A DNA stretch of 49,722 nt from a virus: positions 1-49,722 of IMG/VR virus record IMGVR_UViG_3300045747_000037; one strand, 5' to 3'. The position numbers were made by a program, and so were the translations under genes. How positions within the stretch are numbered: position 1 is the stretch's first letter; the number at the start of each line of letters is the position of its first letter. Of the stretch, positions 1-48,706 are shown piece after piece. A model generated the notes under the pieces. That model was not told where the DNA came from. It made no database searches and saw only the letters and a program-made list of their open reading frames with translations.

Positions 1-127
1 AGGGGTAGGTACTGTGGTGGTGAAATAATCGCTCGTATGTGAGTTTAGTGGGCAGTGGTAAGTTGTTGATTAGTAACGCTGTGCAATGAGCACTACATTT
101 CAATAATAATTGAAGTGTTGTAGTGTT
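1..127. repeat. Terminal direct repeat, left copy (identical to 49596..49722). Most likely a circular-assembly overlap.
   Basis: Bases 1-127 read identically to the last 127 bases of the window, and the identity ends exactly at the window edge. Confidence 0.95.
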
Positions 128-136
128 ACTAGTAAC
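125..136. repeat. GTTACTAGTAAC perfect 12-bp palindrome, copy 1 (intergenic, straddles the end of the terminal repeat)
   Basis: Exact string read in sequence. It is its own reverse complement. Confidence 0.95.
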
Positions 137-459
137 AGGTGAACACCGATGCTGCTGCAAGCAGCCATCACTCACCCTTTGGGGGGAGGGATGTAGCCCC
201 CGTAGGGGGATAGAGGTGTGTAAGTGTTAAGGGTAGGGGGGGAGCAATGTTGTAAATACATATATATTCTTATGACAGCTTACAACACTGCTATATGTTT
301 TATAACATAGGGGGCTACACTATAGATGTTATAGCTACTGTTTGTTGTAGTAGCATATAAACAACACTAACATCAACAACAACATAGACAACAGACACTA
401 CTCTATACATATAATGTTACTAATAACAATAACAACATAGAACATAAACAGGGATGTTC

Positions 460-486
460 CTCTCTCTTCCAACAAGGAAGAGAGAG
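460..486 (+). promoter_or_regulatory. Strong hairpin in the non-coding control region (11-bp stem CTCTCTCTTCC / GGAAGAGAGAG, loop AACAA)
   Basis: Perfect inverted repeat at 460-470 and 476-486. Confidence 0.6.
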
Positions 487-515
487 ATATAAAGATAAAG
501 AGAACAAGGCTGTTT

Positions 516-548
516 AGAGGGAAGAAGCCAGTAGGCTTCTATCCCTCT
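516..548 (+). promoter_or_regulatory. Long hairpin (AGAGGGAAGAAGCC-AGTA-GGCTTCT(A)TCCCTCT, 14 bp with one bulge)
   Basis: Inverted repeat read at 516-529 and 534-548. Confidence 0.55.
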
Positions 549-567
549 TCTCTCAATTACGCCGTAG

Positions 568-610
568 GCACAATAATGAACCCGGACTGTACATTCGTAC
601 AGTATTGTGC
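568..610 (+). promoter_or_regulatory. Nested hairpin (outer GCACAATA/TATTGTGC, inner ACTGTAC-ATTC-GTACAGT)
   Basis: Inverted repeats at 568-575/603-610 and 586-592/597-603. It overlaps the candidate -35 of the late-arm promoter. Confidence 0.5.
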
Positions 611-632
611 TCCTTCAAGCTAGTGATATAGT
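605..632 (+). promoter_or_regulatory. Candidate sigma70-like promoter for the plus-strand arm (TTGTGC - 16 nt - TATAGT)
   Basis: The hexamers were read by eye about 30 nt upstream of the first plus-strand gene (ATG 664, SD AGGAG at 653-657). No scoring was possible. Confidence 0.25.
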
Positions 633-663
633 CCACTCCCAACTAGCAAGTTAGGAGCAAGAC

Positions 664-1200: not shown

Positions 1201-2717
1201 GCAAGCTCAACGCAAGTGTTATGGAAGGATTCGTTAACACGGTCCTACGGAAGAACTTTGATAAGCCTGCTGAGACTCCTCAATTCCACAGAGAGATCTG
1301 GGAACTTGTTACTAGTAACAGCAAACAGGTAGCCATTGCAGCACCTCGGTACCATGCCAAATCCACAGCAGTTACCCATGCCTACACACTTGCTTCAGTC
1401 CTCTTCAGGGAGAGTAGGTACGTCCTTATTGTTTCAGACACGGTTACTCAGGCTGTACAGTTCCTTGGTGACATCAAGAAGGAACTCCTTGAGAACGAAG
1501 ACCTCCGTGCCTTCTTCTCCGTATCAAGTTTCCCGAAAGATACAGAGGACGATCTCATTGTTGAGATGGAAGACAAGCACACCTTTCGGATACAGGCTAA
1601 GGGCAGTGAACAAAAGCTGCGGGGTTTGAAGTGGGCTAACCTTCGTCCTGATCTTGTCATTGGTGATGACATGGAGAATGATGAGATCGTTATGAACAAG
1701 GACCGTAGGCTTAAGTTCAAACGTTGGTTCTATGGTGCTCTCATCCCTTGTGTCTCTTCTTCAGGGAAGATCCGCATAGTCGGAACCATCCTCCACTTGG
1801 ACAGCTTGTTAGAGAACTTGATGCCATCTTCTCTGCTTACCTCTTCCAAAGGTAATGGCAAGATAGCCCTCATCCAAGAGGATCTCAAAGAGTGGACAAG
1901 GATGAAGTTGTCTTGGAGGTCTATCAAGTACCGTGCTCATACCGATGACTTCAAGTTGCTCTTGTGGCCTGAGATGAAGTCTGCGGAGGAGTACAGGCTA
2001 CAAAAGGATGATTACGTCAGACAAGGTTTAGCTGATGTTTACTCCCAAGAGATGTTAAACATCCCTCTCGACATCACAGACACCTTCTTCAAGAAGGAAG
2101 ACTTTATCCCAATGAAGCAAGAGGATCACAAGAGGAACATGATGTTCTATGTGACTTGTGACTTGGCAGTATCAACCTCCAACAAAGCAGACTATTCTGC
2201 CTTTACTGTTGGTGGTATGGACGAAGAAGGCAAGCTCTATTGCAAACATGTCATCAAGGCACGTATGGACGCTTTAGAGATTGTCGATACAATCTTTATG
2301 CTGCAAAAGGTTTATAAGCCCGTACTCTTTGGGTTTGAGCAAGGAACCATTACGAAAGCTATAGGACCATATCTCAATGAGGCAATGCTCAAGAGGGGTG
2401 TGTTCATCTCCATGTCTATGCTCAAGCCTAGTGGAGACAAACTAACTCGTGCTAGAAGCATTCAAGCTCGTATGAGAAGTGGTGCTTGCAAGTTCGATAA
2501 GGATGCGGAATGGTACCAAGGCTTTGAAGATGAGCTTCTCAGATTCCCTAGAGATAAACATGATGACCAAGTAGATGCTTGGAGCTATCTTGGACTCATG
2601 CTCGATCAGATGTGGGAAGCACCAACCGACAAAGAAATTGAACTTGAAGAGTACGAGGCTTTTAAACGAGACAACCAGATGCAAGATGAAGGTCGTTCAC
2701 TAACCTGTGGGTATTGA
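1197..2717 (+). CDS. terL: Terminase large subunit
   Basis: Walker A-like AAPRYHAKST, Walker B LVIGDDMEND, and RNaseH-like nuclease motifs VTCDLAVS...ADYSAF and HDDQVDAWSY. Confidence 0.9.
   Translation: MSKLNASVMEGFVNTVLRKNFDKPAETPQFHREIWELVTSNSKQVAIAAPRYHAKSTAVTHAYTLASVLFRESRYVLIVSDTVTQAVQFLGDIKKELLENEDLRAFFSVSSFPKDTEDDLIVEMEDKHTFRIQAKGSEQKLRGLKWANLRPDLVIGDDMENDEIVMNKDRRLKFKRWFYGALIPCVSSSGKIRIVGTILHLDSLLENLMPSSLLTSSKGNGKIALIQEDLKEWTRMKLSWRSIKYRAHTDDFKLLLWPEMKSAEEYRLQKDDYVRQGLADVYSQEMLNIPLDITDTFFKKEDFIPMKQEDHKRNMMFYVTCDLAVSTSNKADYSAFTVGGMDEEGKLYCKHVIKARMDALEIVDTIFMLQKVYKPVLFGFEQGTITKAIGPYLNEAMLKRGVFISMSMLKPSGDKLTRARSIQARMRSGACKFDKDAEWYQGFEDELLRFPRDKHDDQVDAWSYLGLMLDQMWEAPTDKEIELEEYEAFKRDNQMQDEGRSLTCGY
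1308..1319. repeat. GTTACTAGTAAC palindrome, copy 2 (inside terL, read V-T-S-N)
   Basis: Exact string, in frame with the 1197 ORF (ELVTSNSK). Confidence 0.95.
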
Positions 2718-4804: not shown

Positions 4805-5041
4805 ATGGCAATTGAGATAGCGACAGAGGAAGCGTTTGAAGAGTGGAAGTACCACCCAATAACTCAGCGTCTTATGAAGATGCTCTTCTCGGATAGAGAA
4901 GCTATGAAGGAGGGGATTGTGAACAACGTCTTTGAGAACGCAGAAGAGGTTAAGGGTCGTTGTCGAGCCTTGGCTATCCTGTTGAACTTGGAGTACTCTG
5001 ACTTGGTTTCAATAGAGAGAGGTGATTCTTATGAGCAATGA
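4805..5041 (+). CDS. Hypothetical small head-module protein
   Basis: SD AAGGAG 8 nt upstream, with no competing frame. Confidence 0.6.
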   Translation: MAIEIATEEAFEEWKYHPITQRLMKMLFSDREAMKEGIVNNVFENAEEVKGRCRALAILLNLEYSDLVSIERGDSYEQ

Positions 5042-5852: not shown

Positions 5853-6695
5853 ATGGCTGACACACAAACAGATGTTACTAGTAACGAAACACCCCCAGAG
5901 GTCCTGCATGAAGCAGAGTCTCAAGGCTGGGTGCCAAAGGATCGTTATCGAGGTAACGAAAAGGATTGGGTAGACGCAGAGACCTTCGTTAAGCGTGGTC
6001 GTGAGATCCTTCCAATCCTCAAAAAGAACAATGAGAACCTAGTCCGTGATTTGAATCAGACTAGGGAACAACTCAAAGAATTTCGTGAAGCTGCGGAAGA
6101 GTTCAAGAAGTTCCAGCGTGAGTCTTACGAACGTAAGGCAGCAGACTTTGAGGCTCAGATCAAAGCAATCAAGGAGAGCCGTGCTCAAGCCATTAGTGAT
6201 GGTGATGGGCAAAAGGTCAATGCCTTGGATGATGCCCTCGACACAGCCAAAGACAATCTCAAGGAAGCTAAACAAGCCGTTAAGGATGTTGTTAGCACTC
6301 CTGTTGTTGAAGCTCCTTCTTCGGCTAATCTTGATCCAAACTTACAAACGTGGCTAAATAGCAACGATTGGTTTGGGGTTGATAAGCGCATGACAGGCAT
6401 TGCCAATGGCATTGGTGAGAGCCTTCGCATTGAGTTTCCAATGCTCAAAGGACAGGCTTTCTTGGAAAAACTTGATGAGGTTCTGGCAGAAGAGTTCCCC
6501 AACAAGTTTGGCAAAACAACCAAACGGGCTGCTGGTTCACCTGTTGAATCTGGTTCTGGAAGACAAGGCCGTGGTAGCTCTAGCTCCAAGTCTTACGACA
6601 ACCTTCCCTCTGACGCTAAAGCAGCTTGCGATAAATTCGTTCGTCAAAAACTAATGACCAAAGATGAGTACGTGCAAGCGTATGACTGGTCTTAA
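5853..6695 (+). CDS. Putative scaffolding protein
   Basis: Acidic, K/E-rich, coiled-coil-like sequence between portal and capsid genes. SD AAGGAG at 5841-5846 precedes ATG 5853. Confidence 0.55.
   Translation: MADTQTDVTSNETPPEVLHEAESQGWVPKDRYRGNEKDWVDAETFVKRGREILPILKKNNENLVRDLNQTREQLKEFREAAEEFKKFQRESYERKAADFEAQIKAIKESRAQAISDGDGQKVNALDDALDTAKDNLKEAKQAVKDVVSTPVVEAPSSANLDPNLQTWLNSNDWFGVDKRMTGIANGIGESLRIEFPMLKGQAFLEKLDEVLAEEFPNKFGKTTKRAAGSPVESGSGRQGRGSSSSKSYDNLPSDAKAACDKFVRQKLMTKDEYVQAYDWS
5874..5885. repeat. GTTACTAGTAAC palindrome, copy 3 (in the scaffold-like gene, read V-T-S-N)
   Basis: Exact string, in frame (DVTSNETP). Confidence 0.95.
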
Positions 6696-8937: not shown

Positions 8938-9531
8938 ATGTCTAAAAAGGCTGGTAAAGAGAAACATCCTTTGTTTAACTCATGGTCCCACTACAAACGT
9001 AAAGGGTACCTAACAGATAGGTGGAAAGACTTCTATCTGTTTGTAGAGGACGTTGGTGAGAGACAAGAGGACCACAGGCTAGTCATCACATGGGATGATA
9101 GAGGCATGTCTTGGAAGTGGGTTGAAGTAAAACAGAAACTCATGGACTATGAAAGTAAAACTGCTTATCAGAGAGAGTACATGAGGCGTAACCCAGATAA
9201 GCAAAAGAGTGCTGACCTCAAAAAGCATTTTGGAATAACGCTTGAAGAGTACCGGGGCAAACAAAAAAAGCAGGGTAATGTGTGTGCCATCTGTGGAAAC
9301 CCAGAGTGGACTATGGACAATAGGCTACAACGACCTCGTGAGCTATCTGTAGACCACAACCACAAAACACGACAGATCCGAGGCCTCTTGTGTCGAGGAT
9401 GCAACCAAGGCATCGGTAACTTCCAAGAAGATTTACAGCGGCTCAAAAAGGCTGTACATTACCTAGAATCCTTTGAGGTCTCTAAGGATGTTATTAGTAA
9501 CATGGAGAATGTTCCACATGAAACAATTTAA
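8938..9531 (+). CDS. HNH / endonuclease VII-type homing endonuclease
   Basis: CAICGNPE...LSVDHNHKTRQIRGLLCRGCNQGIGNF is a typical recombination endonuclease VII / HNH zinc-finger core. Confidence 0.8.
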   Translation: MSKKAGKEKHPLFNSWSHYKRKGYLTDRWKDFYLFVEDVGERQEDHRLVITWDDRGMSWKWVEVKQKLMDYESKTAYQREYMRRNPDKQKSADLKKHFGITLEEYRGKQKKQGNVCAICGNPEWTMDNRLQRPRELSVDHNHKTRQIRGLLCRGCNQGIGNFQEDLQRLKKAVHYLESFEVSKDVISNMENVPHETI

Positions 9532-11131: not shown

Positions 11132-13860
11132 GCGACTTTAAGATAGTCTCCCTCTTGAATCCCGTTCAGAATGTTTACAACATTTCTCAAACGGGTGTTG
11201 GTGTTGGAATCGAAGCAGGGATCTCTTCACAGACATCTGGGAACATCACACTAGGATCTTCTGCTGGTAACGTTACTTTTGGAATGCAGAATGGATACAT
11301 TACTGCTTCTGCTCCTAGTGGAGGAGGGGGTGGTTCCAATTATGTGTTCTCTAATGCCAATGGTGTTAGTTTTGGTACTCTAGGTTCTACTGTTACTGCC
11401 ACAGTAGCAACTAACTACATGGCTAGTAATCAGGCTAGCAACTTTCAGAGTGCTGGTGCATACCTAACCACTGCTGCTCAGAGTAATCACTCACACTCTC
11501 TAAACCAGATCCTCAACCCAACTGGGGATGTGTTCTTCTCGTTTAGTCAGAACCAACAGATTCAATTTCAGTTCTCCAACACCGGGACATTCACGACCAA
11601 CGCCAGTAAGCAGGCGATGTTTGAGATTGACATTCAAGGGAACCTTGTTGATGGTGCGGATGGCGTTCACATTCATCAATCTGACAATAACCCCAACATT
11701 GACTTGCTTCACATAGAGGCTTGGGGAACTAACGTCACAGGACTTCGGATCTCTGCATCTGCTTCCATAGCCGCTGAAATCAACAAGCCAATCAAGTTCG
11801 TAGGTACAGGTCTCCAGACTGCTTCTGTCCCAATGATCTTGCAGACAGGTATGACCAACTCGGTTCAGTACCTCAATGCTAACTTCTTGCAGGGTAAGGT
11901 CAGTAGTGAGTTCCAGAGCACTGGCGCTTACATAACTACAGCAGCCCAATCGAATCACAGTCATGCCTTTGCCACCACTACCACCAATGGTGCAGTCATT
12001 GTTGTTGGCACTACAAACAGTGCTGGAGCGACTATTGGAGTTCCTTCGTTCCTGACGACCTATGTGGGCCAGACTAATCAGACTGCTGCTAGTGGAAATA
12101 TAGCGGGAGTAGGAACTACATTTGCTGGAACTAATGTTACAGCTACGATGGCACTCAACAGTGCTGGCTTAGGGCTTAGCTTGTCTGCTGGTGCAGGGGG
12201 TGGAGGTGCTGATGGATATAACTCTGCTCAATTTACCAATAGCACTGCTAATAGCACTATGCCTCTCGTTTGGGCTGGCAATAGTAACGGTAGTGGCAAT
12301 GTCACCATCGGACTTACTGGCAGCACTATCACTATGTCTGCTGCTGGTGGGGGTGGTGCTGGTGATGGTTACAACATCCTTGGTGTCAATGTTGTTGCTA
12401 CATCTCTGTCTACGACTTATATCCTGAGCAATGCAAACAATGTGTCCTTTGGTTTGAACCTAGGGACTATCACTGCTAGTGCTTCGTATGTGAATGATCT
12501 AACCTCTGGCAGGGCTGGTGTAGGTTATACCTCTACTACTCAAGCTGGTGCTGTTGTCGGTGTTACTAATAACACTGCTGGCCTTAGCATGGCATGGCCT
12601 CCATTCCTTACGACTGCTGGTGCTACTAACGCATTGACAACAGCTAGAGCTAGTAACGATGCTCTTGGATTGAACACGGCTCTGACAGCTAACGGAGTAT
12701 CAATCACTGCTAACAGTTCTGGAGTGTCTTGGAACTTCCCTGCATTCCTAACCACGGCAGCACAATCAACCCACTCTCACAACTTTGCTACGACAGTTAC
12801 GGCTGGTGCAGTAGTCAATGTAGCTACAGCTAACAGTGCTGGTGTTACCGTGGGTATGCCAGCGTTTATTACAACCTACGTAGCACAGACGAATCAGACC
12901 GTAGCAAGTGGGAACATTGCAGGGGTTGGGACTACGTTTGCAGGGACGAACATTACCGCCACAATGGGCTTGAACAGCGCAGGTTTAGCACTTAGCCTAT
13001 CTGGTGCGGGTGGTGGGACAATCAACCAAACAGGTCCGAACATCGCTGTTGCCGGGTCTACCGTGACTTCTGGTGATGTTTACTTCTCCAACAGTCCTAC
13101 CGTGACCTTTGGGATGAATGGGTCAACTATCACTGCTAGTGCTGCGGGTGGTGGCGGTGGTGGTGGGGCTACGATCAACGGGTACGAACTGTTTCCCCCT
13201 CTTGGCGGTAACACAGCATTCAGTACGGGCGTGAATGGTACGCTGTACTTCCAGAAGTTCATTGCCCCGGCCAACATCGCATTCAGCAACTTTGAGCGTC
13301 GTTACTCAGGTTCCACGGTATCCAGTGCTATCAGCGCCCAAGCAGCACATTCGATTAGTTATGGACTGTATTCCAAGGGAACAGGCGCTAGCACTTCAAT
13401 CTACAACCTGATTGCATCAAGTAACTTTTTCATGCAAGCCAGCTACTCAAGCAACCTGAGTGCAGGACACACAGTAAGTGCAGGTGCAACCAGCTATACC
13501 AACTCAAGCGCAGGGACAGTTGGGCAAGGTAACTTGACAGGCTACAAGCACATGTACTTCCCGTTTGTGAGTACTTTAACTGCTGGAGTTGAATACGCCT
13601 ACGCTCAGATCGTGTCCTCTGCCACAACGGGTGCTACCGGGCCGCTGCGGATTGGTTTCCAAGAATTGTCAATCATCAACAACTTGACCATTGGCAAGAT
13701 TTACAACAGCACGGTAGCCGCTTCTAACGCAAGTTATGTTGGTGATTGGGCGCAGGGGGTTTATTCATCCTCATCCAATGGACTACCTAGCACCCTAGCT
13801 ATCAGTGGTTTGACCAATGCAGTTTCCCAGCAACGTATGTACCTACAACTCGACGCCTGA
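11128..13860 (+). CDS. Tail fibre-like protein, S/T/N/G/A-rich, with three AAQS(N/T)HSH motifs and an internal duplication of about 95 aa
   Basis: 910 aa of low-complexity fibre composition. It has poly-Gly hinges (GGGGG), repeats at about 11924-12215 and 12743-13020, and HSH motifs at about 11473, 11941 and 12757. Confidence 0.75.
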   Translation: MSDFKIVSLLNPVQNVYNISQTGVGVGIEAGISSQTSGNITLGSSAGNVTFGMQNGYITASAPSGGGGGSNYVFSNANGVSFGTLGSTVTATVATNYMASNQASNFQSAGAYLTTAAQSNHSHSLNQILNPTGDVFFSFSQNQQIQFQFSNTGTFTTNASKQAMFEIDIQGNLVDGADGVHIHQSDNNPNIDLLHIEAWGTNVTGLRISASASIAAEINKPIKFVGTGLQTASVPMILQTGMTNSVQYLNANFLQGKVSSEFQSTGAYITTAAQSNHSHAFATTTTNGAVIVVGTTNSAGATIGVPSFLTTYVGQTNQTAASGNIAGVGTTFAGTNVTATMALNSAGLGLSLSAGAGGGGADGYNSAQFTNSTANSTMPLVWAGNSNGSGNVTIGLTGSTITMSAAGGGGAGDGYNILGVNVVATSLSTTYILSNANNVSFGLNLGTITASASYVNDLTSGRAGVGYTSTTQAGAVVGVTNNTAGLSMAWPPFLTTAGATNALTTARASNDALGLNTALTANGVSITANSSGVSWNFPAFLTTAAQSTHSHNFATTVTAGAVVNVATANSAGVTVGMPAFITTYVAQTNQTVASGNIAGVGTTFAGTNITATMGLNSAGLALSLSGAGGGTINQTGPNIAVAGSTVTSGDVYFSNSPTVTFGMNGSTITASAAGGGGGGGATINGYELFPPLGGNTAFSTGVNGTLYFQKFIAPANIAFSNFERRYSGSTVSSAISAQAAHSISYGLYSKGTGASTSIYNLIASSNFFMQASYSSNLSAGHTVSAGATSYTNSSAGTVGQGNLTGYKHMYFPFVSTLTAGVEYAYAQIVSSATTGATGPLRIGFQELSIINNLTIGKIYNSTVAASNASYVGDWAQGVYSSSSNGLPSTLAISGLTNAVSQQRMYLQLDA

Positions 13861-15650: not shown

Positions 15651-15662
15651 GTTACTAGTAAC
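15651..15662. repeat. GTTACTAGTAAC palindrome, copy 4 (intergenic, 3 nt before ATG 15666)
   Basis: Exact string between stop 15648 and start 15666. Confidence 0.95.
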
Positions 15663-31396: not shown

Positions 31397-32733
31397 TGCT
31401 TAACGTCCTCATCATTGATGCGACTGGTGTATGCCTAGACCTTGCTATGAGGTGCAAGGTTTATGGGCATAATGTTCGTGCATACATTCGCAACGATAGG
31501 ACTGGGGTTAGATCTCGTACTGGTGATGGACTGATTGAGCGTGTCTCTGATTGGGAAGCTCACATGAACTGGGCTGATCTCATCTTCTGTACTGACAACC
31601 TCTTCTACTTACATCAGTTGGAACGCTATAGGGACAAAGGCTACCCTATTCTTGGTCCTAGTATTGACACTAACCGTTGGGAACAAGACCGTCAGCATGG
31701 TGCAGATGTCTTTGAGAAGGCGGGTATCCCTGTCATCCCTTCTGTGGAGTTCACTAGCTATGACGATGCCATAAGTTTTGTTATCAAGAATAACAAACGT
31801 TATGTTTCTAAGCCGTTAGGTGACGGAGATAAGGCTCTTAGCTACGTATCAAAGACTGCTGCTGACATGGTGTTCATGCTTCAGAAGTGGAAGAAGAGTA
31901 ACGCCTACAAAGGTTCTTTCATACTTCAGGAGTTTCATGGTGGTATTGAGATTGCTGTTGGTGGTTGGTTTGGTAGCAATGGTTTCTCTAAACACTTCTG
32001 TATCAACCACGAGTTTAAGAAGCTACTTGCTGGGGACTTAGGAGTATCTACTGGAGAAGAAGGTACAATCTTGTACTATGTACAAGATTCTCTGTTAGCA
32101 GATAAGGTACTCAAACCATTAGAGTCAATGCTAATGGGCTTAGGGTATACCGGGTACATAGATGTCAACTGCATTGTTGATGACAAAGGTACTCCTTGGC
32201 CTTTAGAGTTCACCATGAGACCGGGATGGCCTCTCTTTATGATCCAACAAGCTCTTCATAAGGGTGATCCTTGTCAATGGATGTTAGACCTCATTGGTGG
32301 CAAAGACACTCTACGTGTCTCTGATAAGATTGCTTGCGGTGTAGTGATTACTATGCCACCCTATCCTCACGACAAGGGTACTCCTCAAGACGAACACATT
32401 GGGTATCCCATGTTTGATCTTACCGAAGAGGATGTTACTAAGAACGTTCATCTTGCTTCTGTGAAGTGGGGTACTGCTCCGGCTATGGTTGATGGTAAGG
32501 TCAAGTTGAAGCACGAGCAGTTTGTTACTGCTGGGAACTACGTTTGTATTGTTACTGGTGTAGGTGACTCTGTTGAAGGCGCTAGTGAGGATTGCTACAC
32601 CCGCATCAAGAAGAAGATCCACATACCTAATTCGATTGGGTACAGAAATGACATTGGACGTAGGTTAAAGGATCAACTTCCTATTCTCAACACTATGGGC
32701 TACTCAGACAAGGTGTACGAAGATGGCGACTAA
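31396..32733 (+). CDS. ATP-grasp protein, PurD (GAR synthetase)-like
   Basis: Collinear with PurD: LGPS...WEQDRQHGADVFEKAGIPV, NHEFKKLLAGDLGVSTGEEG, GYTGYIDVNCIVDDKGTPWPLEFTMRPGWP, and YVCIVTGVGDSVEGA...GYRNDIG. The N-terminal GGREHA-type loop is not conserved. Confidence 0.7.
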   Translation: MLNVLIIDATGVCLDLAMRCKVYGHNVRAYIRNDRTGVRSRTGDGLIERVSDWEAHMNWADLIFCTDNLFYLHQLERYRDKGYPILGPSIDTNRWEQDRQHGADVFEKAGIPVIPSVEFTSYDDAISFVIKNNKRYVSKPLGDGDKALSYVSKTAADMVFMLQKWKKSNAYKGSFILQEFHGGIEIAVGGWFGSNGFSKHFCINHEFKKLLAGDLGVSTGEEGTILYYVQDSLLADKVLKPLESMLMGLGYTGYIDVNCIVDDKGTPWPLEFTMRPGWPLFMIQQALHKGDPCQWMLDLIGGKDTLRVSDKIACGVVITMPPYPHDKGTPQDEHIGYPMFDLTEEDVTKNVHLASVKWGTAPAMVDGKVKLKHEQFVTAGNYVCIVTGVGDSVEGASEDCYTRIKKKIHIPNSIGYRNDIGRRLKDQLPILNTMGYSDKVYEDGD

Positions 32734-33139: not shown

Positions 33140-33597
33140 ACATGATCTTCTCTTCAAATGGGTTAGAGATTCTCAAACGTTTAGAGGGATTCTCTGCTAC
33201 AGCTTACCCAGATGCTGCTGGTAAGCAGACTATTGGGTACGGGCACTTAATAGTTAAAGATGATGATCTTCCTAGCACTGGGTCAATTAGCTTTGAGAAG
33301 GCTACGGAGCTTTTGGAACAGGATGTGCAGAAGGCCATTGACTGCGTAAACAACTGTGTTACTAGTAACCTCACTCAGAATCAGTTTGATGCTTTGGTGA
33401 TTTTTACCTACAATGTTGGTACCAATGCTCTTCAGAACTCAACCTTATTAGACTTGATCAATGCGGGTAAGTTGGAAGATGCTTCTGATCAACTACCTCG
33501 TTGGTGTAAGGTACATACAAAGCAAGGTGCTTTCGTTGAAATAGCTGGATTAAGAAATCGTAGGTTAGCAGAACAGGATCTATTTGATCTTGCGTAA
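33136..33597 (+). CDS. Endolysin, GH24 (T4/lambda lysozyme-type) muramidase
   Basis: LKRLEGFSATAYPDAAGKQTIGYGH...NQFDALVIFTYNVG is the catalytic E-D-T region pattern. No N-terminal signal or SAR segment. Confidence 0.85.
   Translation: MNMIFSSNGLEILKRLEGFSATAYPDAAGKQTIGYGHLIVKDDDLPSTGSISFEKATELLEQDVQKAIDCVNNCVTSNLTQNQFDALVIFTYNVGTNALQNSTLLDLINAGKLEDASDQLPRWCKVHTKQGAFVEIAGLRNRRLAEQDLFDLA
33358..33369. repeat. GTTACTAGTAAC palindrome, copy 6 (in the endolysin gene, read V-T-S-N)
   Basis: Exact string, in frame (CVTSNLTQ). Confidence 0.95.
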
Positions 33598-35580: not shown

Positions 35581-35621
35581 AAGCCCCTTACAGTGTCATT
35601 CCTGTTTGGGGCTTCTTTTTT
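35581..35621 (+). terminator. Terminator at the end of the plus-strand arm
   Basis: AAGCCCC (35581-87) pairs with GGGGCTT (35608-14), followed by C+TTTTTT. The loop is long (20 nt). Confidence 0.5.
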
Positions 35622-35630
35622 AGGTGAGGT

Positions 35631-35642
35631 GTTACTAGTAAC
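35631..35642. repeat. GTTACTAGTAAC palindrome, copy 7 (at the convergence point of the two arms)
   Basis: Exact string. Its last base is also the first plus-strand base (35642) of the stop-codon triplet of the last minus-strand gene. Confidence 0.95.
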
Positions 35643-37978: not shown

Positions 37979-38376
37979 TTGATGTGGTCCTTAATGAATT
38001 TAGTCCAAGTGTCTACGTCAGAGAAGGTACATACAGGTAATCCCTGCTTAGTTGCCCAATCAATGTAAGTCGTAGAACTCTTCTTAGAGAGCTTCTGGTT
38101 CCTATACAAAACGTAGAGGATGGTTATCTCTGGATGTTGTTCCTTGATAAGACATGCCTTCTGTCTGTCTACGGATGTCCATAATCCTTTGGTCTCGATG
38201 TAAACGTTATTAGTAACAGTGAAGTCGGGTGTGTACGTGTGTCCCTTGGCAGGAATAACGAACTTTATCCGATCCTGTTCGTAAGGTAGCTTCCAACCTC
38301 TTGCTTCACAAGCTAGTTGGAACCTCTGTTCAAGCCCACTTTTGTAAGCTGCTTCTAGGTGTCGTTTAGGCTTCAT
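37975..38376 (-). CDS. Holliday-junction resolvase, T7 endonuclease I (gp3) homologue
   Basis: GHTYTPDFTVTNNVYIETKGLW...LIKEQHPEITILYV matches T7 gp3 HTYTPDFLLPNGIFVETKGLW...LIREQHPELDIRIV. Confidence 0.85.
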   Translation of the reverse strand: MKPKRHLEAAYKSGLEQRFQLACEARGWKLPYEQDRIKFVIPAKGHTYTPDFTVTNNVYIETKGLWTSVDRQKACLIKEQHPEITILYVLYRNQKLSKKSSTTYIDWATKQGLPVCTFSDVDTWTKFIKDHIK

Positions 38377-38542: not shown

Positions 38543-39214
38543 TCATACTAATTCCTTTGTAGGTACTTCCCAGATGTCATTTGGTTTCTGCCAGATCCAA
38601 AGCAACTTCAAGTTGAGATGGAATCTCTCGTCATCGTTGTAGATCTCACGACAGGCTTGGTAGTACTCTTCAGGTAGCAATGGATCTAGGATCTTTGCAG
38701 CCTTTACTGGGCCAATGCCAGCTATGCCTGTGATGTTGTCACTACGATCTCCAACAAGAGTCTGCATGAACAAGGCTTTGAGACCCTGATCGTATGTGAC
38801 CTCTTGAAACTCCTTCTTGACGAAGTTGTAATGCTTTCCGGGGATCATCAACAGGTCTTTGTCAATCGAGCAGATGACAGTGGACTTACCACTCTTGTCT
38901 TGGTCAATTCCCATTTGATCATCAGCTTCAAAGCCATCACAGATGATTGCCTTGTGCTGTGTTACTAGGAACTCTCGTACTGCTTGCCAATGTGCAGGTC
39001 TCTCATCAGGTCTGTTAGCCTTGTAGGTAGGTGTCAACTCTCTACGAAAGTTACCAGAGCCAGTGAGAAAGACCTTGTAGCTGTCTGCATGGGTGTCTTC
39101 CAAGATGTCTTGGATTGTCTTATCAGCCCTAGTCAAGGCTACCCATACTTCGTCTTTCTCTGCACTGCAAGCACATCGGTAGTTAACGATGTCTCCGTCA
39201 ATCAACGCTATCAT
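38543..39214 (-). CDS. 5'-3' exonuclease / flap endonuclease (PIN + H3TH)
   Basis: LIDGDIVNYR, FEADDQMG, SIDKDLLM and GDRSDNITGIAGIGPVKAAKIL. Confidence 0.85.
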   Translation of the reverse strand: MIALIDGDIVNYRCACSAEKDEVWVALTRADKTIQDILEDTHADSYKVFLTGSGNFRRELTPTYKANRPDERPAHWQAVREFLVTQHKAIICDGFEADDQMGIDQDKSGKSTVICSIDKDLLMIPGKHYNFVKKEFQEVTYDQGLKALFMQTLVGDRSDNITGIAGIGPVKAAKILDPLLPEEYYQACREIYNDDERFHLNLKLLWIWQKPNDIWEVPTKELV

Positions 39215-39486: not shown

Positions 39487-39738
39487 CTACTTAGAGTAGT
39501 ACATCTTCAAGAGGTTAGCCAAGCTGACCATCGGAAGCTCTTTCTTCCAGAAGGTCAAGAAAGCACCTAACTTGTCAACATCCGACTCCTTGACTACTAC
39601 GTTACTAGTAACAACCTTGGGAACCAAGACAACCTTGGGTTTGTTTGGGGTACCCTTTGGGCGACCTATTTTCTTCTTGGGTACGATAGAGACATCCACT
39701 GCTGCTAATGGGTTGATTTGTTTAGCTTCCATTTTCAT
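39487..39738 (-). CDS. AT-hook-containing small DNA-binding protein
   Basis: KKKIGRPKGTPNKPK is a GRP AT-hook core. The gene itself carries palindrome copy 8. Confidence 0.55.
   Translation of the reverse strand: MKMEAKQINPLAAVDVSIVPKKKIGRPKGTPNKPKVVLVPKVVTSNVVVKESDVDKLGAFLTFWKKELPMVSLANLLKMYYSK
39601..39612. repeat. GTTACTAGTAAC palindrome, copy 8 (in a minus-strand gene, still read V-T-S-N)
   Basis: Exact string, in frame on the minus strand (VVTSNVVV). Confidence 0.95.
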
Positions 39739-42270: not shown

Positions 42271-43533
42271 TTATTCGTAACGGGCGACAGTAGGAACTAT
42301 CGTCACCATATATTGTCCGTGTCGTTCTGCTTCTTCTTGCTTTGGACCTCCTCCGGGTAGTTTGTTCTTAGGAACATTGATCGTCCGAATCATCTCTTCT
42401 TCGGGACTTTTGGGTTCTTTGTACTTGCCAATGGTTATCACTGCATCTGCTTCACCGGGCTTGTCAGTCTTGGAACCACGTAATGCTTCCATACCAATGA
42501 ACGGTGGGTCTTTCATCTCCACTGCTGATGCTGAGAGTTGAGAAGCTGCTATCACTGGTCCGTATGTACGAGCAAGCTCTCTAGCCCACTTGTACAACTT
42601 ACCTAGCATCTGGTCTTCTCTCTCATCACCTCTGAAGCCATCAACCTTATCCAACTGGTCAAAGACAATCATGCCGGGATTAACTTCCTTGAATAGAACC
42701 TCCAAGTCACGGATGTTATTAGTATCTTTTGTGACCCTTATCTTGTTCTTGTCTCCACCCATTAGGGCTGTGTATCTAGCCATAGCACTTGGAGTATCAG
42801 CAATAATGTCCTTGCTCTGTTCACCAAGAGCAGCTTGGACTATACGGAAGAACACTACAGCAGATTCCTCTTCGTTATTAACCCAAACCACTGGTCTGTT
42901 CTTGGGTAACTGCTGGGCTATATAGCTAATCTCACTAGCCAAGAAGGTAGTTTTACCTACCTCTACTCTAGCTGCCACGATAATGAAGTTACTAGTACGT
43001 AGAGGGCCAAGGGAACGGTTAAGGACATCCAAGCGCCACTCATACCCCGTGCTAGAAATTCGACTAGCAATCTCAGTGAGATCTGCATTGACAAATAACT
43101 CATCTTTTTCAATGTACCTTTCAACATCCTTCAAAGCATTAGTAGCTAGTAAATGAACATCCTCCAAGTCACTGCTACCTTCCTTAACTCTTTCACACTC
43201 TTCCATAATCTTAGCTAGATAATCTAACTCAATGAGAGTCTTGATTACCTCTTCATGTGCTAAATGAGGTATAAAGCTTTGAGCTTTGGTAAGAGTAATA
43301 CGCAGCTTAACCAAAGACTCTTCTGCCAATCTCTTGCTTTGATCAGCAATAAGGTATGCAGAGAATGGTTCCCAATAGAATCCCTTAACACTGGGGAATA
43401 CCTTGTAGTACTTCTCCATACCATCAAGGATTATCATTGTCTCTTTGGTTACTACATGAGGCTTGATATACCTCTTGTATCTTGTTAGATTCTCTTTGCT
43501 TTGACTGCAAAGGTGTAATACTGAATAGTCCAT
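42271..43533 (-). CDS. DnaB-like replicative helicase
   Basis: Walker A AARVEVGKTTF, Walker B MIVFDQLDKV, and an arginine-finger region ALRGSKTDK. Confidence 0.85.
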   Translation of the reverse strand: MDYSVLHLCSQSKENLTRYKRYIKPHVVTKETMIILDGMEKYYKVFPSVKGFYWEPFSAYLIADQSKRLAEESLVKLRITLTKAQSFIPHLAHEEVIKTLIELDYLAKIMEECERVKEGSSDLEDVHLLATNALKDVERYIEKDELFVNADLTEIASRISSTGYEWRLDVLNRSLGPLRTSNFIIVAARVEVGKTTFLASEISYIAQQLPKNRPVVWVNNEEESAVVFFRIVQAALGEQSKDIIADTPSAMARYTALMGGDKNKIRVTKDTNNIRDLEVLFKEVNPGMIVFDQLDKVDGFRGDEREDQMLGKLYKWARELARTYGPVIAASQLSASAVEMKDPPFIGMEALRGSKTDKPGEADAVITIGKYKEPKSPEEEMIRTINVPKNKLPGGGPKQEEAERHGQYMVTIVPTVARYE

Positions 43534-43542: not shown

Positions 43543-44343
43543 TTATATTAGATGTTCTCTTAACTCTTTTGGAGAGCACTGTTTAGGCTCTTTATCTGTA
43601 GCGTATATCGCTATCTTGGTGTTACTTAAGAAGTGTGTTAGTTGGTGTTGTGCTTTGATAGCTCCTTTAATACCTGCTTCATCTGGATCTAACCATATAA
43701 AGATAACGTCAAACTTCAATTCATGTATCTGTAGTAGTGTTCTATCTGTTATAGATGTTCTTAGTAACGCTACTGAGCTAAAGAGTGTGTCTCTAGCTAC
43801 CCTATATGCGCTTAGATAATCTTCAGTGATTACCAGCATATTGTTGTTCTTATTAAACCAGCTAGATTCTCCGTGGTTGGTAGTATCTGTGTAGCTGGTT
43901 AGATACTTCTGTGGTGCTCCTTTGATTAGGTTTCTTATCTGCCAGCCTATCGGCTGTTGTTGTGCATTATGTAGTTTCAAGGCTACGGAGTCTGGTCTGT
44001 GCTCCACTCCTGCGAAGTTCTCGTCAAGATGGTTGCAGTGGTACGTGGTCAACCACATCTTCCCGTGTAGGCTGATAGGAGCCGTTTTTATCGAAAGTGA
44101 GGGGTAGGGTACCACCAAGCTCTTTTCGTCGCTCCTAAGCCAATGGCGCAGTCTGGAATTGGCATCATCAGCCACTCCATGCTCTGTACAATGATGACAG
44201 TACGCAATGATCCCGGTTGAGGTACGCTTGATGTACAACCTACGCTTGTGGTCCTCTCCCGCAGGACATCCAACATGGTTCACATGGGATTGCTCTCCAA
44301 TGTTACTAGGAGCATTCTTCAATATCAAACTACGGCTAATCAC
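43543..44343 (-). CDS. DNA primase (zinc finger + TOPRIM)
   Basis: CPAGEDH...CHHC zinc motif. TOPRIM LVITEDYLSA and IWLDPDEAG. GTG start 7 nt after SD AAGGAG. Confidence 0.8.
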   Translation of the reverse strand: MISRSLILKNAPSNIGEQSHVNHVGCPAGEDHKRRLYIKRTSTGIIAYCHHCTEHGVADDANSRLRHWLRSDEKSLVVPYPSLSIKTAPISLHGKMWLTTYHCNHLDENFAGVEHRPDSVALKLHNAQQQPIGWQIRNLIKGAPQKYLTSYTDTTNHGESSWFNKNNNMLVITEDYLSAYRVARDTLFSSVALLRTSITDRTLLQIHELKFDVIFIWLDPDEAGIKGAIKAQHQLTHFLSNTKIAIYATDKEPKQCSPKELREHLI

Positions 44344-45545: not shown

Positions 45546-47362
45546 GTTAGTAACCTCTTTTCTATTAACTCTAACAACTTATTCGGAATTTCTGATGGCT
45601 CATTGACTACTGACCGATGCTTGTAGTACGTACTAACTGCAGTACTGCACAAACCTAATCCGTAAATATCAACCAGTTTATCTTTCTCTATCTCTTGGAT
45701 AACCTGTAATGTGAATCTCTCTACGCCCAGAGTACTGCCAGATGCACAAGGCTCACCATCTGACATAACTATGAACAGTCGCTTCTTCTCCTTTCGTTTG
45801 AGTAACCTGTCGTAAGACCAGAGTATGTTCTCACCATCTGGATTACCTGTCATAAAATGGCTAGCCTTACTAAAGTAACTAACCAAATCATCCGTAGTTA
45901 CTCGTAAGTTCTGGAAGTTCTTGAATATGAACATTTGAGGAACATAATCACCTAATGTTCGGTTAAACTCATCTGAGAACCCAGTAATCTCTAGTGGAAT
46001 ACCCAAGGTTGAGCACACCTCATTGAGTAACACCGTAGCTCCTATTGCGTTATAGACCTTATCACCACCCATAGAGCCTGACATATCTACCAACACAGAT
46101 ACAGCAGCATCAAGAGTCTTGTTTTCTATCTTCCTCTTAAATACCTTCTCATTCAAACCGGGAGCATTGAAGCAGATACGAGACAGCCTAGCTTGGTCAA
46201 GCTTTCCTTTACGGACACCGTACTCAGTCTGCACCTTAGCTCTGATTTGAATCAACCGTCTTACCTGTTGAGCAAAGTTCTCTTGGGCTACCATCTTGCT
46301 ACCAACACGGCTATTGAAGGTAGATAAAAAGCCCGGATTGGAAGCATTAAGATACCTTTCCTCACCAAGATTGTTTGGGTAGTCAACAATGCAGAAGTCT
46401 TTGTAGTCAGTTAGCTTCCATCCATCCCTGTGAAGTGCTACAGGCTCATGGTTGATACCTGTGTTAGACATCTTTGTGGGATCTCTAGGCTTAGTGATTG
46501 AGTAGCTTTCAAGGTCCTCTTCAGTCAGAACAATAGTGATAATCTCAAACTTGTCAGTCCGACTGTCATCTTCTGAAGGAGCTTTGTCTTCTCCCTCTCC
46601 ACCTTTGGATGATTTCTTTCTTGCTTCACTGTCAGCACTAGCAGGTTTACCAGTTGGTGATTCTTCATCATTCTCTTCTCCTCTATCAGATTTAACTTTG
46701 GTCTTTGTCTTATCCTCTTTCATTGGTACATCTTCAGCAAGCTTCTTGCAAATATCAACTGCTAGTTGGTAGGTAGCAGTACTTCCTATCCTCTTGTCAA
46801 GAATGCTTTGGCAATCAAGCAAACGATCAGTAAAGTTACTAAGAACATCCAAGACATCCTTCCTAGCAACAAACTTACTAGCTGCCATTTCAATAAGTGG
46901 GAACATAGAAGTATTGATACTAGCTTCCCAACATACTAGGGCAGTAATTAGAGAACCCATGACACTAGTGGTGTCTTTGCTGGTCTTGGTCAGTATCTCA
47001 GTAGTGAGATCACTGGTACTAGCGTCCCAGTTCTCTCTAAAGCCACGATACTCTCTAGCTTCAATAGCATTAACTCTGGAGTCTTCTAGGAAGTTCCAGA
47101 CATACATCAAAGCAGAATCATGAGTAACTGGCTTCTCTTTCAACACCTCAAAGGAGCTAAAGCGATCATGGGCTACTTCGTGGTCAACAGAAGCCATGAA
47201 CTCAATAAGCTGCTTATCAGTGGTAGAGCGTGTTATCTCTGGCAGATAAATGGTCTTGCCATCATGCCTAGGTTGGTTGATGTGCTCAAAGACTACTGAG
47301 AGACCAGCCCTACCTGCGCTAGCTCTACAGTATCTTTGAACCTGAATGCCATTGGTTAGCAT
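45542..47362 (-). CDS. CobT-like vWA-domain protein with an N-terminal HExxH motif and an acidic linker
   Basis: MIDAS VLVDMSGSMGG, later FIVMSDGEP. HEVAH near the N-terminus. The linker is E/D/K/S-rich (EENDEESPTGK...GEGEDKAPSEDD). Confidence 0.75.
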   Translation of the reverse strand: MLTNGIQVQRYCRASAGRAGLSVVFEHINQPRHDGKTIYLPEITRSTTDKQLIEFMASVDHEVAHDRFSSFEVLKEKPVTHDSALMYVWNFLEDSRVNAIEAREYRGFRENWDASTSDLTTEILTKTSKDTTSVMGSLITALVCWEASINTSMFPLIEMAASKFVARKDVLDVLSNFTDRLLDCQSILDKRIGSTATYQLAVDICKKLAEDVPMKEDKTKTKVKSDRGEENDEESPTGKPASADSEARKKSSKGGEGEDKAPSEDDSRTDKFEIITIVLTEEDLESYSITKPRDPTKMSNTGINHEPVALHRDGWKLTDYKDFCIVDYPNNLGEERYLNASNPGFLSTFNSRVGSKMVAQENFAQQVRRLIQIRAKVQTEYGVRKGKLDQARLSRICFNAPGLNEKVFKRKIENKTLDAAVSVLVDMSGSMGGDKVYNAIGATVLLNEVCSTLGIPLEITGFSDEFNRTLGDYVPQMFIFKNFQNLRVTTDDLVSYFSKASHFMTGNPDGENILWSYDRLLKRKEKKRLFIVMSDGEPCASGSTLGVERFTLQVIQEIEKDKLVDIYGLGLCSTAVSTYYKHRSVVNEPSEIPNKLLELIEKRLLT

Positions 47363-47815
47363 TTAAGCAGCCTCTGATTGGAAGAACACAGAGATAGCAG
47401 TCCAAACCTTGCTCTTGTGTTCTGAAGGAACACGAGTAAGCCTACCAACAAGATACTTCACCTCTGCTTCTGGATCAAACTCCTTCTCTTCAGTCTTAGC
47501 AGCTTTGATACTGTTCTGAAGAGCAGTCTTTCCATAGAAAGATCCATTGGTATCAACTAGCTTGATGTTCATCTTCATTGCTGTCTGGATAACAGACTTA
47601 CCTGATCTCCAAGGACCGGGCATTGAAGAGATCTCAAACTCCTTCTTGATGATTGCTTCAGTGTCTTTCAACTCATTCTGAAAGGTCTCCAAGGTTGAAT
47701 GACTATAAGCCACAGCAATCATCTTTTCAAATGTGCTATTGGCTGACGCATCGCTCACCAAACTTTCTGTAGCGGCTGCATAAAGAGCACTACCTACGGC
47801 TTTCTCATCTGACAT
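47363..47815 (-). CDS. Hypothetical protein (150 aa)
   Basis: SD GGAGA before ATG 47815. Its stop abuts the vWA gene start. Confidence 0.6.
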   Translation of the reverse strand: MSDEKAVGSALYAAATESLVSDASANSTFEKMIAVAYSHSTLETFQNELKDTEAIIKKEFEISSMPGPWRSGKSVIQTAMKMNIKLVDTNGSFYGKTALQNSIKAAKTEEKEFDPEAEVKYLVGRLTRVPSEHKSKVWTAISVFFQSEAA

Positions 47816-47845
47816 GGTTATCTCCAATAAAGGCAGGATTGCCTC

Positions 47846-47875
47846 ATTAGTCTGCTAAGTTAATAACAGACTAAT
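47846..47875 (-). promoter_or_regulatory. 9-bp-stem hairpin between early genes
   Basis: ATTAGTCTG (47846-54) pairs with CAGACTAAT (47867-75). No U-tract follows. Confidence 0.35.
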
Positions 47876-47883
47876 AAAGTACC

Positions 47884-48084
47884 CTAATAGGAATCAAACT
47901 CAGACATCTCCCCATCATAGAACCAATTCAAGTAGGCATGGATGCCTGATTTGAAATGATTATCAAATTCACACTCTTCTTCTAACCCAGCTTGTTCTAA
48001 AGTGACCTTTTCAATTTTATCGCTTTCTTCCCAACTCATCTCATCAACGAGATCAATTGTTTCTAACTCAAGTTTTAAGCTCAT
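47884..48084 (-). CDS. Highly acidic early protein (66 aa)
   Basis: SD AAGGAG before ATG 48084. About 19 D/E against about 4 K/R. Confidence 0.55.
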   Translation of the reverse strand: MSLKLELETIDLVDEMSWEESDKIEKVTLEQAGLEEECEFDNHFKSGIHAYLNWFYDGEMSEFDSY

Positions 48085-48245
48085 AGCTAACTCCTTAATA
48101 AGTACTAACTTAACTAACACAAATAGGAAGGGACTGCCTCACGGCCCCCACTCCCAGTGGGCCGGGAGCAGGCCCGACATCTATTACATCTTTCAGCACG
48201 CAGCACGAGTGACTGAGCGAAGCGAAGGCACGAGGGATGCCTTGG

Positions 48246-48467
48246 CTATTGGGGATCATCATGCCTCTCTGTGAAGATGTCATCTTGGCATTGTTGGCAG
48301 AGACCAGAGATTTGATATTCTTTGACAGAGAACAGATTTCTAAACCCAATGATCGGTTTAGAACAGAGAGGACATTTACCAGCTTTGACAGCGGCTCTAG
48401 TTCCGGGGAACATGTGCTCAAGAGCATCTTTCATCTCTGGGGATTTATTTGACATAGGAGATTTCAT
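48246..48467 (-). CDS. Small zinc-ribbon protein
   Basis: CPLC...19 aa...CQQC. ATG 48467 is in ATGA overlap with the upstream gene. Confidence 0.5.
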   Translation of the reverse strand: MKSPMSNKSPEMKDALEHMFPGTRAAVKAGKCPLCSKPIIGFRNLFSVKEYQISGLCQQCQDDIFTERHDDPQ

Positions 48468-48706
48468 ACGTAGTCCATTTCTTTGATAAGTTGATTCCAT
48501 TGATCTTCATTGAGGATTTCAAGATCTTCAATGTCGTACAGATATTCCAACAGCATCAGTTGTGTTTTGAACACATGACGTGTTGAATCATTTGGTGGTG
48601 TAAACACACGAGCACCATATTCAAACTCTCTGTCATTAACACCACATGAGTTATCTTGTTTGATAACAGCAGTGTTACTAGGAACATGGATAAGAGCGTG
48701 GAACAT
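48464..48706 (-). CDS. Hypothetical early protein (80 aa)
   Basis: Clean frame. Contains a one-mismatch palindrome variant read V-P-S-N. Confidence 0.5.
   Translation of the reverse strand: MFHALIHVPSNTAVIKQDNSCGVNDREFEYGARVFTPPNDSTRHVFKTQLMLLEYLYDIEDLEILNEDQWNQLIKEMDYV

Follow-up and report, generated by a model that had tools for sequence, protein, structure and literature searches.

A dispersed palindromic DNA word under purifying selection in an uncultured podovirus genome and its relatives

Introduction

DNA words that are selected inside coding sequence throughout a phage genome are rare, and the understood cases (stoperators, Chi, parS, and OB) reveal a genome-wide mechanism. The KorB operators (OB) are 13-bp palindromes (TTTAGCSGCTAAA) that are present in 12 copies on the ~60-kb plasmid RK2, and both KorB and ParB act over a distance via a sliding or spreading protein. 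On host chromosomes, the sites SBS of SlmA (GTGAGTACTCAC), NBS of Noc, and matS of MatP occur roughly once per 50 kb. Stoperators of the Cluster A mycobacteriophages lack symmetry, point in the direction of transcription, and lie mainly between genes; these phages are temperate and encode the repressor. HIP1 (GCGATCGC) is an 8-bp iterated palindrome of cyanobacteria and some cyanophages that reaches thousands of copies in the hosts. The single-strand nick words of tf/LUZ24, phiKMV, and T5 are asymmetric and present on one strand only, with TACT/RTGMC as the consensus in tf (PMC3517423). Here, a virus genome from IMG/VR (record IMGVR_UViG_3300045747_000037, positions 1 to 49,722; the whole stretch of 49,722 nucleotides is referred to as the window) was analyzed for the palindromic 12-bp word GTTACTAGTAAC, which recurs along its entire length. 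The same motif is found again in uncultured podoviruses that are abundant in freshwater and for which the reference phage collection contains no close isolate. An earlier note, made from the letters of the window alone, had listed the copies of the word and proposed that it is selected at the DNA level and tolerated within genes in one reading frame only.

Results

Over-Representation and Dyad Symmetry of the Word

A total of eight exact copies of GTTACTAGTAAC are present in the window (table 1), and none of the dinucleotide shuffles of the window yielded an exact copy. A further 13 copies carry one mismatch, resulting in 21 copies with at most one mismatch compared with a mean of 0.17 in the shuffles. 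The recount agrees with every exact and one-mismatch coordinate listed in the earlier note, and the observation of an over-represented palindrome is confirmed. Codon repeats aside, the word is the sole conspicuous repeated word in the genome; it contains the SpeI site ACTAGT, and four of its copies in the window are non-coding. Two variants, GTTACTAATAAC/GTTATTAGTAAC and GTTACTAGGAAC/GTTCCTAGTAAC, recur five times each. A literature search for the 12-mer returned only two unrelated primer-type matches, and the word is otherwise absent from the searchable literature in this context.

The symmetry extends by one base pair on either side of the word. Position −1 is a T in 17 and position +1 an A in 14 of the 21 sites, which gives a perfect dyad of 14 bp, and no conservation of the flanks was found around the window sites beyond these two positions. 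All 22 window matches to GTTNNTANNAAC obey the degenerate dyad GTT[AC][CT]TA[AG][GT]AAC (14-bp form tGTTMYTARKAACa), among them four copies with two mismatches (the degenerate sites of table 1), and the one-mismatch copies outside the pattern (18697, 27989, and 29693) bring the total to 25 sites. Isolated half-sites (GTTACTA) were found 3 and 6 times with ~3.8 expected, i.e., at chance level; the dyad and not the half-site is therefore the functional unit, and a Chi-like orientation-dependent half-site word was rejected on the same basis. The perfect dyad together with the chance-level half-sites points to the binding site of a dimeric protein, which was one of the options raised in the earlier note. 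The single-strand hairpin of a site amounts to only −1.1 to −1.8 kcal/mol, and 14–86 out of 200 shuffles fold at least as well. A promoter or terminator element was rejected based on this marginal hairpin, the lack of a conserved flank, and the absence of promoter hexamers at a fixed offset from the sites.

The sites cover the genome evenly. The coefficient of variation (CV) of the gaps between sites is 0.56, 0.54, and 0.69 in three complete genomes compared with 0.94 for random placement (P = 0.002, 0.001, and 0.047, respectively), and the largest gaps in these genomes measure 4.1–4.6 kb. Three consecutive gaps within the window (9490-12562-15651-18697) are nearly equal (3072, 3089, and 3046 bp); this pattern is not repeated in the relatives and may be a coincidence. 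A role of the sites as hotspots of recombination or module junctions was rejected: BLAST alignment ends between the window and its relatives are not enriched within 25 bp of sites (0.039 compared with 0.026 ± 0.018), 103 out of 500 random site sets reach this value, and the signal derives from a single HNH insertion at 5874.

Reading Frame and Selection on Synonymous Sites

All five exact coding copies and nine of the 12 one-mismatch coding copies are read in the frame GTT-ACT-AGT-AAC (Val-Thr-Ser-Asn), as had been stated in the earlier note. The bias is explained by the remaining two frames of the word. One of them reads TAG-TAA and the other, open frame requires the minor codons TTA, CTA, and GTA, which make up 13%, 15%, and 24% of their synonymous families, respectively, so that the proposed tolerance in a single frame holds. 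The earlier note had further suggested a comparison with codon-preserving shuffles. When synonymous codons were permuted within each gene, which retains the proteins and the codon usage, an average of 0.09 exact coding copies and ~0.8 coding copies with at most one mismatch were obtained compared with 5 and 17 observed, i.e., the counts were not reproduced. The proteome contains five Val-Thr-Ser-Asn tetrapeptides (VTSN) and each one is encoded by the exact word, with a probability based on codon usage of 0.02 apiece.

The site within the terminase gene (+111 nt) is found at the orthologous position in nearly all relatives with a terminase that is at least 79% identical. Among the 68 closer relatives (79–85% identical), the terminase columns CTT-GTT-ACT-AGT (L-V-T-S) display a majority-codon share of 0.97–0.99 compared with a median of 0.66, and a share of 0.97 is reached by 19 out of 366 comparable columns. 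CTT-GTT-ACT-AGT(-AAC) is essentially invariant while the codons of adjacent conserved residues vary freely, and relatives without the terminase site retain V-T-S in the protein with scattered codons. Synonymous sites that are frozen inside the word while neighboring codons vary indicate selection on the DNA. The common variants (AGG, AGC, AAT, ATT, and CCT) are those that alter one amino acid, as if the demands of the protein and of the site had been balanced against each other. Overall, the shuffles and the frozen synonymous sites show that the motif is under purifying selection acting on the DNA itself, in support of the DNA-level selection proposed in the earlier note.

Conservation in Relatives and in a Second Lineage

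A total of 203 related loci were collected from IMG/VR using the terminase, the gene at 22159-23649, and the DNA polymerase as queries. The 80 terminase loci (1.17 Mb) contain 130 exact and 145 one-mismatch copies, 13 partly or fully reconstructed relatives carry 6–14 copies each with at most one mismatch, and the two fully covered relatives contain 22 and 24 sites according to the degenerate definition. The positions of the sites are partly common to the relatives and partly not, and the number of sites per genome is kept. Counted over unique contexts, 296 sites in the related loci are read as Val-Thr-Ser-Asn, 74 in the second open frame, and 4 in the stop-containing frame, and 94 (about one-fifth) have no long open reading frame (ORF) through them. 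Many sites of this last group are located 0–20 nt past a stop codon, and many of those are orthologous copies of one site.

Scanning IMG/VR for the 14-mer revealed a second lineage (L268, L280, L303, and relatives). Its terminase is related to the window terminase at the profile level only. The isolates closest to this lineage are two phages of OM43 Methylophilales, MEP401 and MEP402 (56%), together with the cobaviruses of the family Zobellviridae. Most second-lineage loci were sampled only ~20 kb around the terminase, and the group as a whole contains 125 sites in 893 kb compared with ~2 expected from the word frequency. Over unique contexts, 78 of the sites are read as Val-Thr-Ser-Asn, 18 in the second open frame, 1 in the stop-containing frame, and 19 are without a long ORF. 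A sister dyad, tGTTCTTARGAACa (motif 2, GTTCTTAAGAAC), is present in divergent sub-clades of both lineages (L079, L080, and L072 in the first, L519-L522 in the second). The motif is thus conserved family-wide with a sister specificity. The LexA box of Verrucomicrobia, TGTTC-N4-GAACA, has a variable spacer and lies upstream of SOS genes; motif 2 resembles this box, but a match was rejected because the four bases at the center do not vary freely (CTAG or TTAA) and the sites lie mostly within genes of the phages.

Both lineages have tail-fibre domains, CobT, and the endolysin in common, as well as a distantly related replication module and, in some cases, an HNH or DUF6321 gene. The DUF6321 gene encodes a small, very basic protein that is 61% identical between the two lineages (L079 5992-6264, L080, and L524 8765-9034; second-lineage loci L452, L460, L493, and L521), which implies recent exchange, and many relatives have this gene at the head of the structural arm. 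No close relative of the window at the DNA level was found in the reference phage collection. Based on the terminase protein, the nearest phages are the Manatee Spring metagenomic phage (46%) and the Alcaligenes phage QDWS535 (52% over 77% of the protein). The Manatee Spring phage contains no copy of the word and no comparable repeated word. The Alcaligenes phage (L204, 25-48 kb) carries its own palindrome, tCCTAAYRTTAGGa, in 11 copies that are mostly located in short gaps between early genes, and it also contains 11 copies of TGATCGACC, all on one strand. Lineage-specific dispersed words may be common in the wider group.

Candidate Binding Proteins and Host Genomes

Two proteins of the window had been put forward as binders in the earlier note, a winged helix-turn-helix (wHTH) protein (37628-37978) and an "AT-hook" protein (39487-39738). 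Neither proposal stands, as no homologue of either protein was found in the 203 related loci, which include two fully reconstructed motif-bearing genomes. The product of the first early gene (48865-49122, 85 amino acids) was modelled as a helical hairpin (predicted local distance difference test, pLDDT, 79) and the 150-amino-acid protein adjoining CobT (47363-47827) as an all-helical protein (pLDDT 85); no PDB entry matches either of them significantly in sequence or in fold, and both were rejected as binders. The DUF6321 protein was rejected because it is absent from the window. Profile searches in the sampled DNA identified no small protein that is common to both lineages and tracks the motif, and no protein of the ParB/KorB family was identified in the ORFs scanned (several small ORFs were outside the scan). 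A link to homing endonucleases was rejected as well: both EndoVII/HNH ORFs of the window (see below) are absent from the relatives except L020, and the distant HNH homologues found in a few other loci are located 254–3336 bp from the nearest site.

The 14-mer was also sought in a set of 185,579 species genomes, which gave at least 120 stretches with a match. Among the matches listed, 116 stretches hold one site, about one-third are rpsQ of Flavobacteriia by eye (18 by a strict pattern), and no motif-dense genome was seen. The exact 14-mer TGTTACTAGTAACA is conserved in rpsQ of many Flavobacteriia (encoding ribosomal protein S17, GVVTSNKM; L323-L442), a coding coincidence that dominates the matches in genomes. 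At the contig end of a metagenome-assembled genome of the Anaerolineae (L381 104-238), four copies of the word form a tandem repeat with an exact period of 41 bp.

Genome Architecture and Location of the Sites

Positions 1-127 and 49596-49722 of the window are identical, i.e., the contig ends carry an exact 127-nt duplication. This length is a common maximum k-mer of assemblers, and the duplication is therefore read as the overlap of a circular assembly, in which case the genome probably measures 49,595 bp and has no biological direct terminal repeat. The earlier note had placed the site at 125 at the edge of a terminal repeat and of a control region: the contact with the 127-nt assembly overlap would then be coincidental, and the location within a control region, the ~1.1-kb divergent non-coding region, holds. 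The two other landmark positions named there, ahead of the ATG at 15666 and at the convergence of the two arms, were recovered as described (table 1), and the relatives likewise carry a site beside a terminator.

Within the divergent region (49123-49595 and 1-663) lie TATA-rich stretches and long G tracts (180-245) as well as strong hairpins at about 455-485, 519-545, and 570-609; the same layout, a motif site and then a G-rich tract, is found in the relatives. The region may represent an origin or a promoter region, and the ORF calls at 49163-49519 and 49534-49698 within it look spurious. No integrase, partition gene, or repressor was found among the ORFs scanned (Pfam, PHROG, and NCBIfam), and scans of the window for tRNA genes and Rfam families were both empty. 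A GroES co-chaperonin gene (5022-5381) within the head module and a pair of genes for a CobS-like AAA protein and CobT (44412-47362) in the early arm are conserved across the family. The structural arm contains two inserted ORFs of the EndoVII/HNH type, one behind the GroES gene (5378-5842) and one behind the major capsid gene (8938-9531), and each is directly upstream of, or overlaps, a motif site (5874 and 9490, respectively). Homologues of the large blocks at 10.9-21.3 kb and 33.6-37.98 kb are almost lacking among the related loci, yet these blocks display the usual density of motif sites; they include a 910-amino-acid protein, tail fibres, a weak glycosyltransferase-like and S-adenosylmethionine (SAM) methyltransferase-like pair, and several consecutive small ORFs, the wHTH gene among them.

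Table 1. Coordinates of the transcription arms, the terminator, and the motif sites in the window
Feature	Coordinates	Sequence or reading	Location and remarks
+ arm	664-35499		small and large terminase, portal, GroES, major capsid protein, tail proteins, 1789-aa (amino acid) protein, endolysin
− arm	35642 to ~49122		endonuclease I, 5'-3' exonuclease, family A DNA polymerase, DnaB-like helicase, Toprim primase, CobS-like AAA protein, CobT
Intrinsic terminator	35583-35625	AAAGCCCC...GGGGCTTCTTTTTT	closes the + arm just ahead of site 35631
Exact site	125..136	GTTACTAGTAAC	~1.1-kb divergent non-coding control region; relatives too have a site here, then a G-rich tract
One-mismatch site	416..427	GTTACTAATAAC	control region, directly 3' of a TATAAT hexamer
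Exact site	1308..1319	VTSN	large terminase gene, codons 38-41
Exact site	5874..5885	VTSN	start of gene 5853-6695, 32 nt past inserted EndoVII/HNH ORF; orthologous site of relatives at ~+4237
One-mismatch site	9490..9501	GTTATTAGTAAC	close to 3' end of second inserted EndoVII/HNH ORF
One-mismatch site	12562..12573	VTNN	910-aa gene
Exact site	15651..15662		intergenic, 2 nt past upstream stop codon, 3 nt ahead of ATG 15666
One-mismatch site	18697..18708	ATTACTAGTAAC (ITSN)	
One-mismatch site	22130..22141	VTNN	9 codons short of gene end
Exact site	23545..23556	VTSN	gene 22159-23649, PHROG head-closure match
One-mismatch site	25902..25913	GTTCCTAGTAAC (VPSN)	
One-mismatch site	27989..28000	VTSI	1789-aa gene
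One-mismatch site	29693..29704	VTSK	1789-aa gene
One-mismatch site	30223..30234	GTTACTAGGAAC, alternative frame (LLG)	
One-mismatch site	31258..31269	GTTACTAGGAAC, alternative frame	
Degenerate site	32434..32445	GTTACTAAGAAC (VTKN)	fits the tGTTMYTARKAACa dyad
Exact site	33358..33369	VTSN	endolysin gene
Exact site	35631..35642		arm convergence, past terminator 35583-35625; last base overlaps stop codon of last − strand gene
One-mismatch site	38206..38217	VTNN	endonuclease I gene, − strand
One-mismatch site	38961..38972	alternative frame	5'-3' exonuclease gene
Exact site	39601..39612	VTSN	− strand ORF 39487-39738
Degenerate site	42364..42375	GTTCTTAGGAAC	DnaB-like helicase gene
Degenerate site	43757..43768	GTTCTTAGTAAC	primase gene
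Degenerate site	46835..46846	GTTACTAAGAAC	CobT gene
One-mismatch site	48674..48685	VPSN	codon 8 of early ORF 48464-48706

Discussion

The 14-bp dyad tGTTMYTARKAACa probably represents a set of genome-wide binding sites for a trans-acting, symmetric (homodimeric) DNA-binding protein. The word would function in double-stranded form and be recognized by a symmetric homodimer with sequence specificity. In each 42–50-kb genome, ~22–25 sites are held by purifying selection on both arms without a gap of more than ~4.6 kb, and the sites inside genes occupy the frame that is cheapest for the encoded protein (Val-Thr-Ser-Asn and near variants). The recognizer would be supplied in trans, would be neither the wHTH nor the "AT-hook" protein, and would most likely be encoded by the host or on a small module that is exchanged between co-infecting phages. 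A recognizer outside the phage backbone is suggested by the finding that two lineages with different structural modules each hold sub-clades with motif 1 (GTTACTAGTAAC) and with motif 2. The sites may serve a role for the whole chromosome and not for individual promoters, and a protein that coats, organizes, silences, or protects the phage DNA could use them for loading, as roadblocks, or for bridging. A more specific version, which we regard as speculative and rather unlikely, is that both lineages infect the same uncultured freshwater hosts and are each loaded with ~20 high-affinity sites for a host dimeric protein of the ParB, Noc, or SlmA/TetR type, a factor of chromosome organization or division control, and that the motif variant tracks the host lineage; the phage DNA would then be the effector that recruits or titrates the host protein, either to coat, compartmentalize, or protect the replicating phage chromosome or to shut down a process of the host, for example cell division.

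Several observations weigh against genome-wide sites for a protein supplied in trans. No binder was identified among the candidates examined, and the two conserved early proteins that were modelled (those two only) display no DNA-binding fold. The two lineages are not fully independent, as they share a distantly homologous replication module (exonuclease 42% and helicase 41% identity to MEP402), and together with the ~20-kb sampling of most second-lineage loci this means that a shared, phage-encoded recognizer may exist. The even spacing is absent in one nearly complete second-lineage genome (CV 1.1), which has five sites clustered within 1.2 kb of small early genes (the early control region), an arrangement that looks more like a classical operator array. 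Furthermore, the marine isolate MEP402 contains neither the motif nor any repeated 12-bp palindrome.

The early cluster in the second lineage is one of the arguments for operators of a phage-encoded regulator, an early repressor or activator that would bind in the control region, at the borders of genes, and within transcription units, would time or block transcription in the manner of stoperators, and whose specificity would be shared between the lineages by exchange of the regulator gene. We consider this explanation possible but on the unlikely side. It would account for the sites that lie in the divergent control region or, where the arms converge, beside terminators, both here and in the relatives, and for the ~20% of unique-context sites without a long ORF, many of them just past (0–20 nt) a stop codon, and the sister motif of the sub-clades resembles the drift of immunity specificity among Cluster A mycobacteriophages. 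However, most sites are located deep in genes, and even spacing is not expected for promoter operators. The search for a regulator gave no conserved DNA-binding protein: the wHTH protein is confined to this genome, the family of the first early gene is a helical hairpin, the 150-amino-acid family is all-helical without a significant fold match, an integrase or repressor was undetected among the scanned ORFs, and no small protein is common to the lineages in the sampled regions. An enzyme target is improbable. According to this explanation, the word would be recognized by a nickase or endonuclease (during recombination-dependent replication or for nicks in the virion) or by a DNA-modifying enzyme, and other podoviruses do have site-specific nicks at short conserved words in conserved positions (PMC3517423). 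The genome encodes an endonuclease I, a 5'-3' exonuclease, and two EndoVII/HNH ORFs, each of which adjoins a site, and the word includes a SpeI site. The known nick consensuses are nevertheless asymmetric and confined to one strand, TACT/RTGMC of tf is mismatched by the word (TACT followed by AGTAAC), and double-strand cutting at a palindrome would break the genome ~25 times. Relatives that keep the motif lack the HNH ORFs, HNH homologues elsewhere are not beside sites, alignment ends between relatives are not enriched at sites, and the sole methyltransferase-like ORF is a generic SAM enzyme adjoining a weak glycosyltransferase-like match.

The even spacing without a gap of more than 4.6 kb, which is comparable to Okazaki fragments, and a palindrome that reads alike on both strands could also indicate signals for replication or packaging, i.e., lagging-strand priming, helicase loading on either strand, or distributed pac-like sites that are read by the small terminase. 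Both lineages carry a distantly related T7-like replication module, and the circular assembly of the contig is consistent with headful packaging. This explanation is nonetheless very improbable: known primases read 3–5 nt and not 14-bp dyads, the hairpin is too weak for a structural signal, MEP402 has the same type of module without the motif, homologues of the small terminase are not common to the lineages, and the sites in the second-lineage genome are unevenly spaced. Finally, the word might have no function as DNA and be due to common ancestry, to codon bias, or to selection for a VTSN peptide or an RNA element, which we consider hardly conceivable. Many copies in the relatives are orthologous, so that raw counts across loci are not independent, and the same 14-mer does arise by coding coincidence in rpsQ of Flavobacteriia. 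This reading is contradicted by the codon-preserving shuffles, which fail to reproduce the counts, and by synonymous positions that are frozen only inside the word. Four copies in the window are non-coding, sites are found in non-homologous genes and in a second lineage with different structural genes, and a peptide or RNA element needs no perfect palindrome.

The identity of the reader would determine what the motif means for phage biology. Should a host protein read the motif, the host range of hundreds of metagenomic phages would be marked by it from sequence alone, and phages would be seen to exploit a host factor by means of their DNA in a manner that is new. Should the reader belong to the phage, a new family of regulators that act genome-wide in lytic-looking phages would be defined.

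Comparison with Known Systems

The earlier note is partly supported by this analysis: its reading was right in kind, a site for a dimeric protein that is tolerated in one frame, and wrong with regard to the binders, the landmark at a terminal repeat, and the analogy with single-strand nicks. The nick words of the tf/LUZ24 type share with the motif a short conserved word in 5–14 copies at conserved positions in a podovirus with two convergent arms (PMC3517423). The tf consensus needs a T followed by a G at positions 6-7 whereas the motif has a G followed by a T, so the common TACT core on which the analogy was built does not extend to the consensus. Moreover, the nick word is found on one strand, and nicking at a perfect palindrome would hit both; the analogy therefore fails.

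HIP1 resembles the motif as an over-represented palindrome that is largely coding and displays a frame preference, and HIP1, for its part, is common to phages and their hosts. The stoperators of Cluster A mycobacteriophages and the inverted repeats of the Streptomyces phage phiC31 are similar in that tens of copies of a single short word, bound by the repressor in their case, are present genome-wide inside transcription units and the consensus drifts between sub-clades. In contrast to stoperators, the phage motif is a perfect palindrome on both arms, mostly coding and evenly spaced, in a genome whose scanned ORFs include no repressor or integrase. The SlmA, Noc, and MatP sites are 12–14-bp palindromes spread through coding DNA that are read by a dimer and mark a whole DNA domain, as the motif would, and the SBS of SlmA matches the motif at 8 out of 12 positions that are symmetrically placed; the density of the phage motif differs, with one site per 2 kb. 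The OB sites of KorB and the parS sites of ParB are likewise short perfect dyads for a dimer, with a dozen or more copies around a 40–60-kb replicon and some of them distant from promoters, and the outer bases of the canonical parS (TGTT/AACA) are the same in the motif. The phage site differs from these systems in its length (14 bp instead of 16), its location mostly in genes, and a replicon that appears to be a lytic phage. It shares with them the multi-copy short perfect palindrome, and it departs from them in that a ParB- or KorB-family protein on the replicon is missing from the scanned ORFs. Overall, the OB sites of KorB, parS, and the sites of Noc and SlmA appear to be the closest to the motif in form and in copy number or dispersal.

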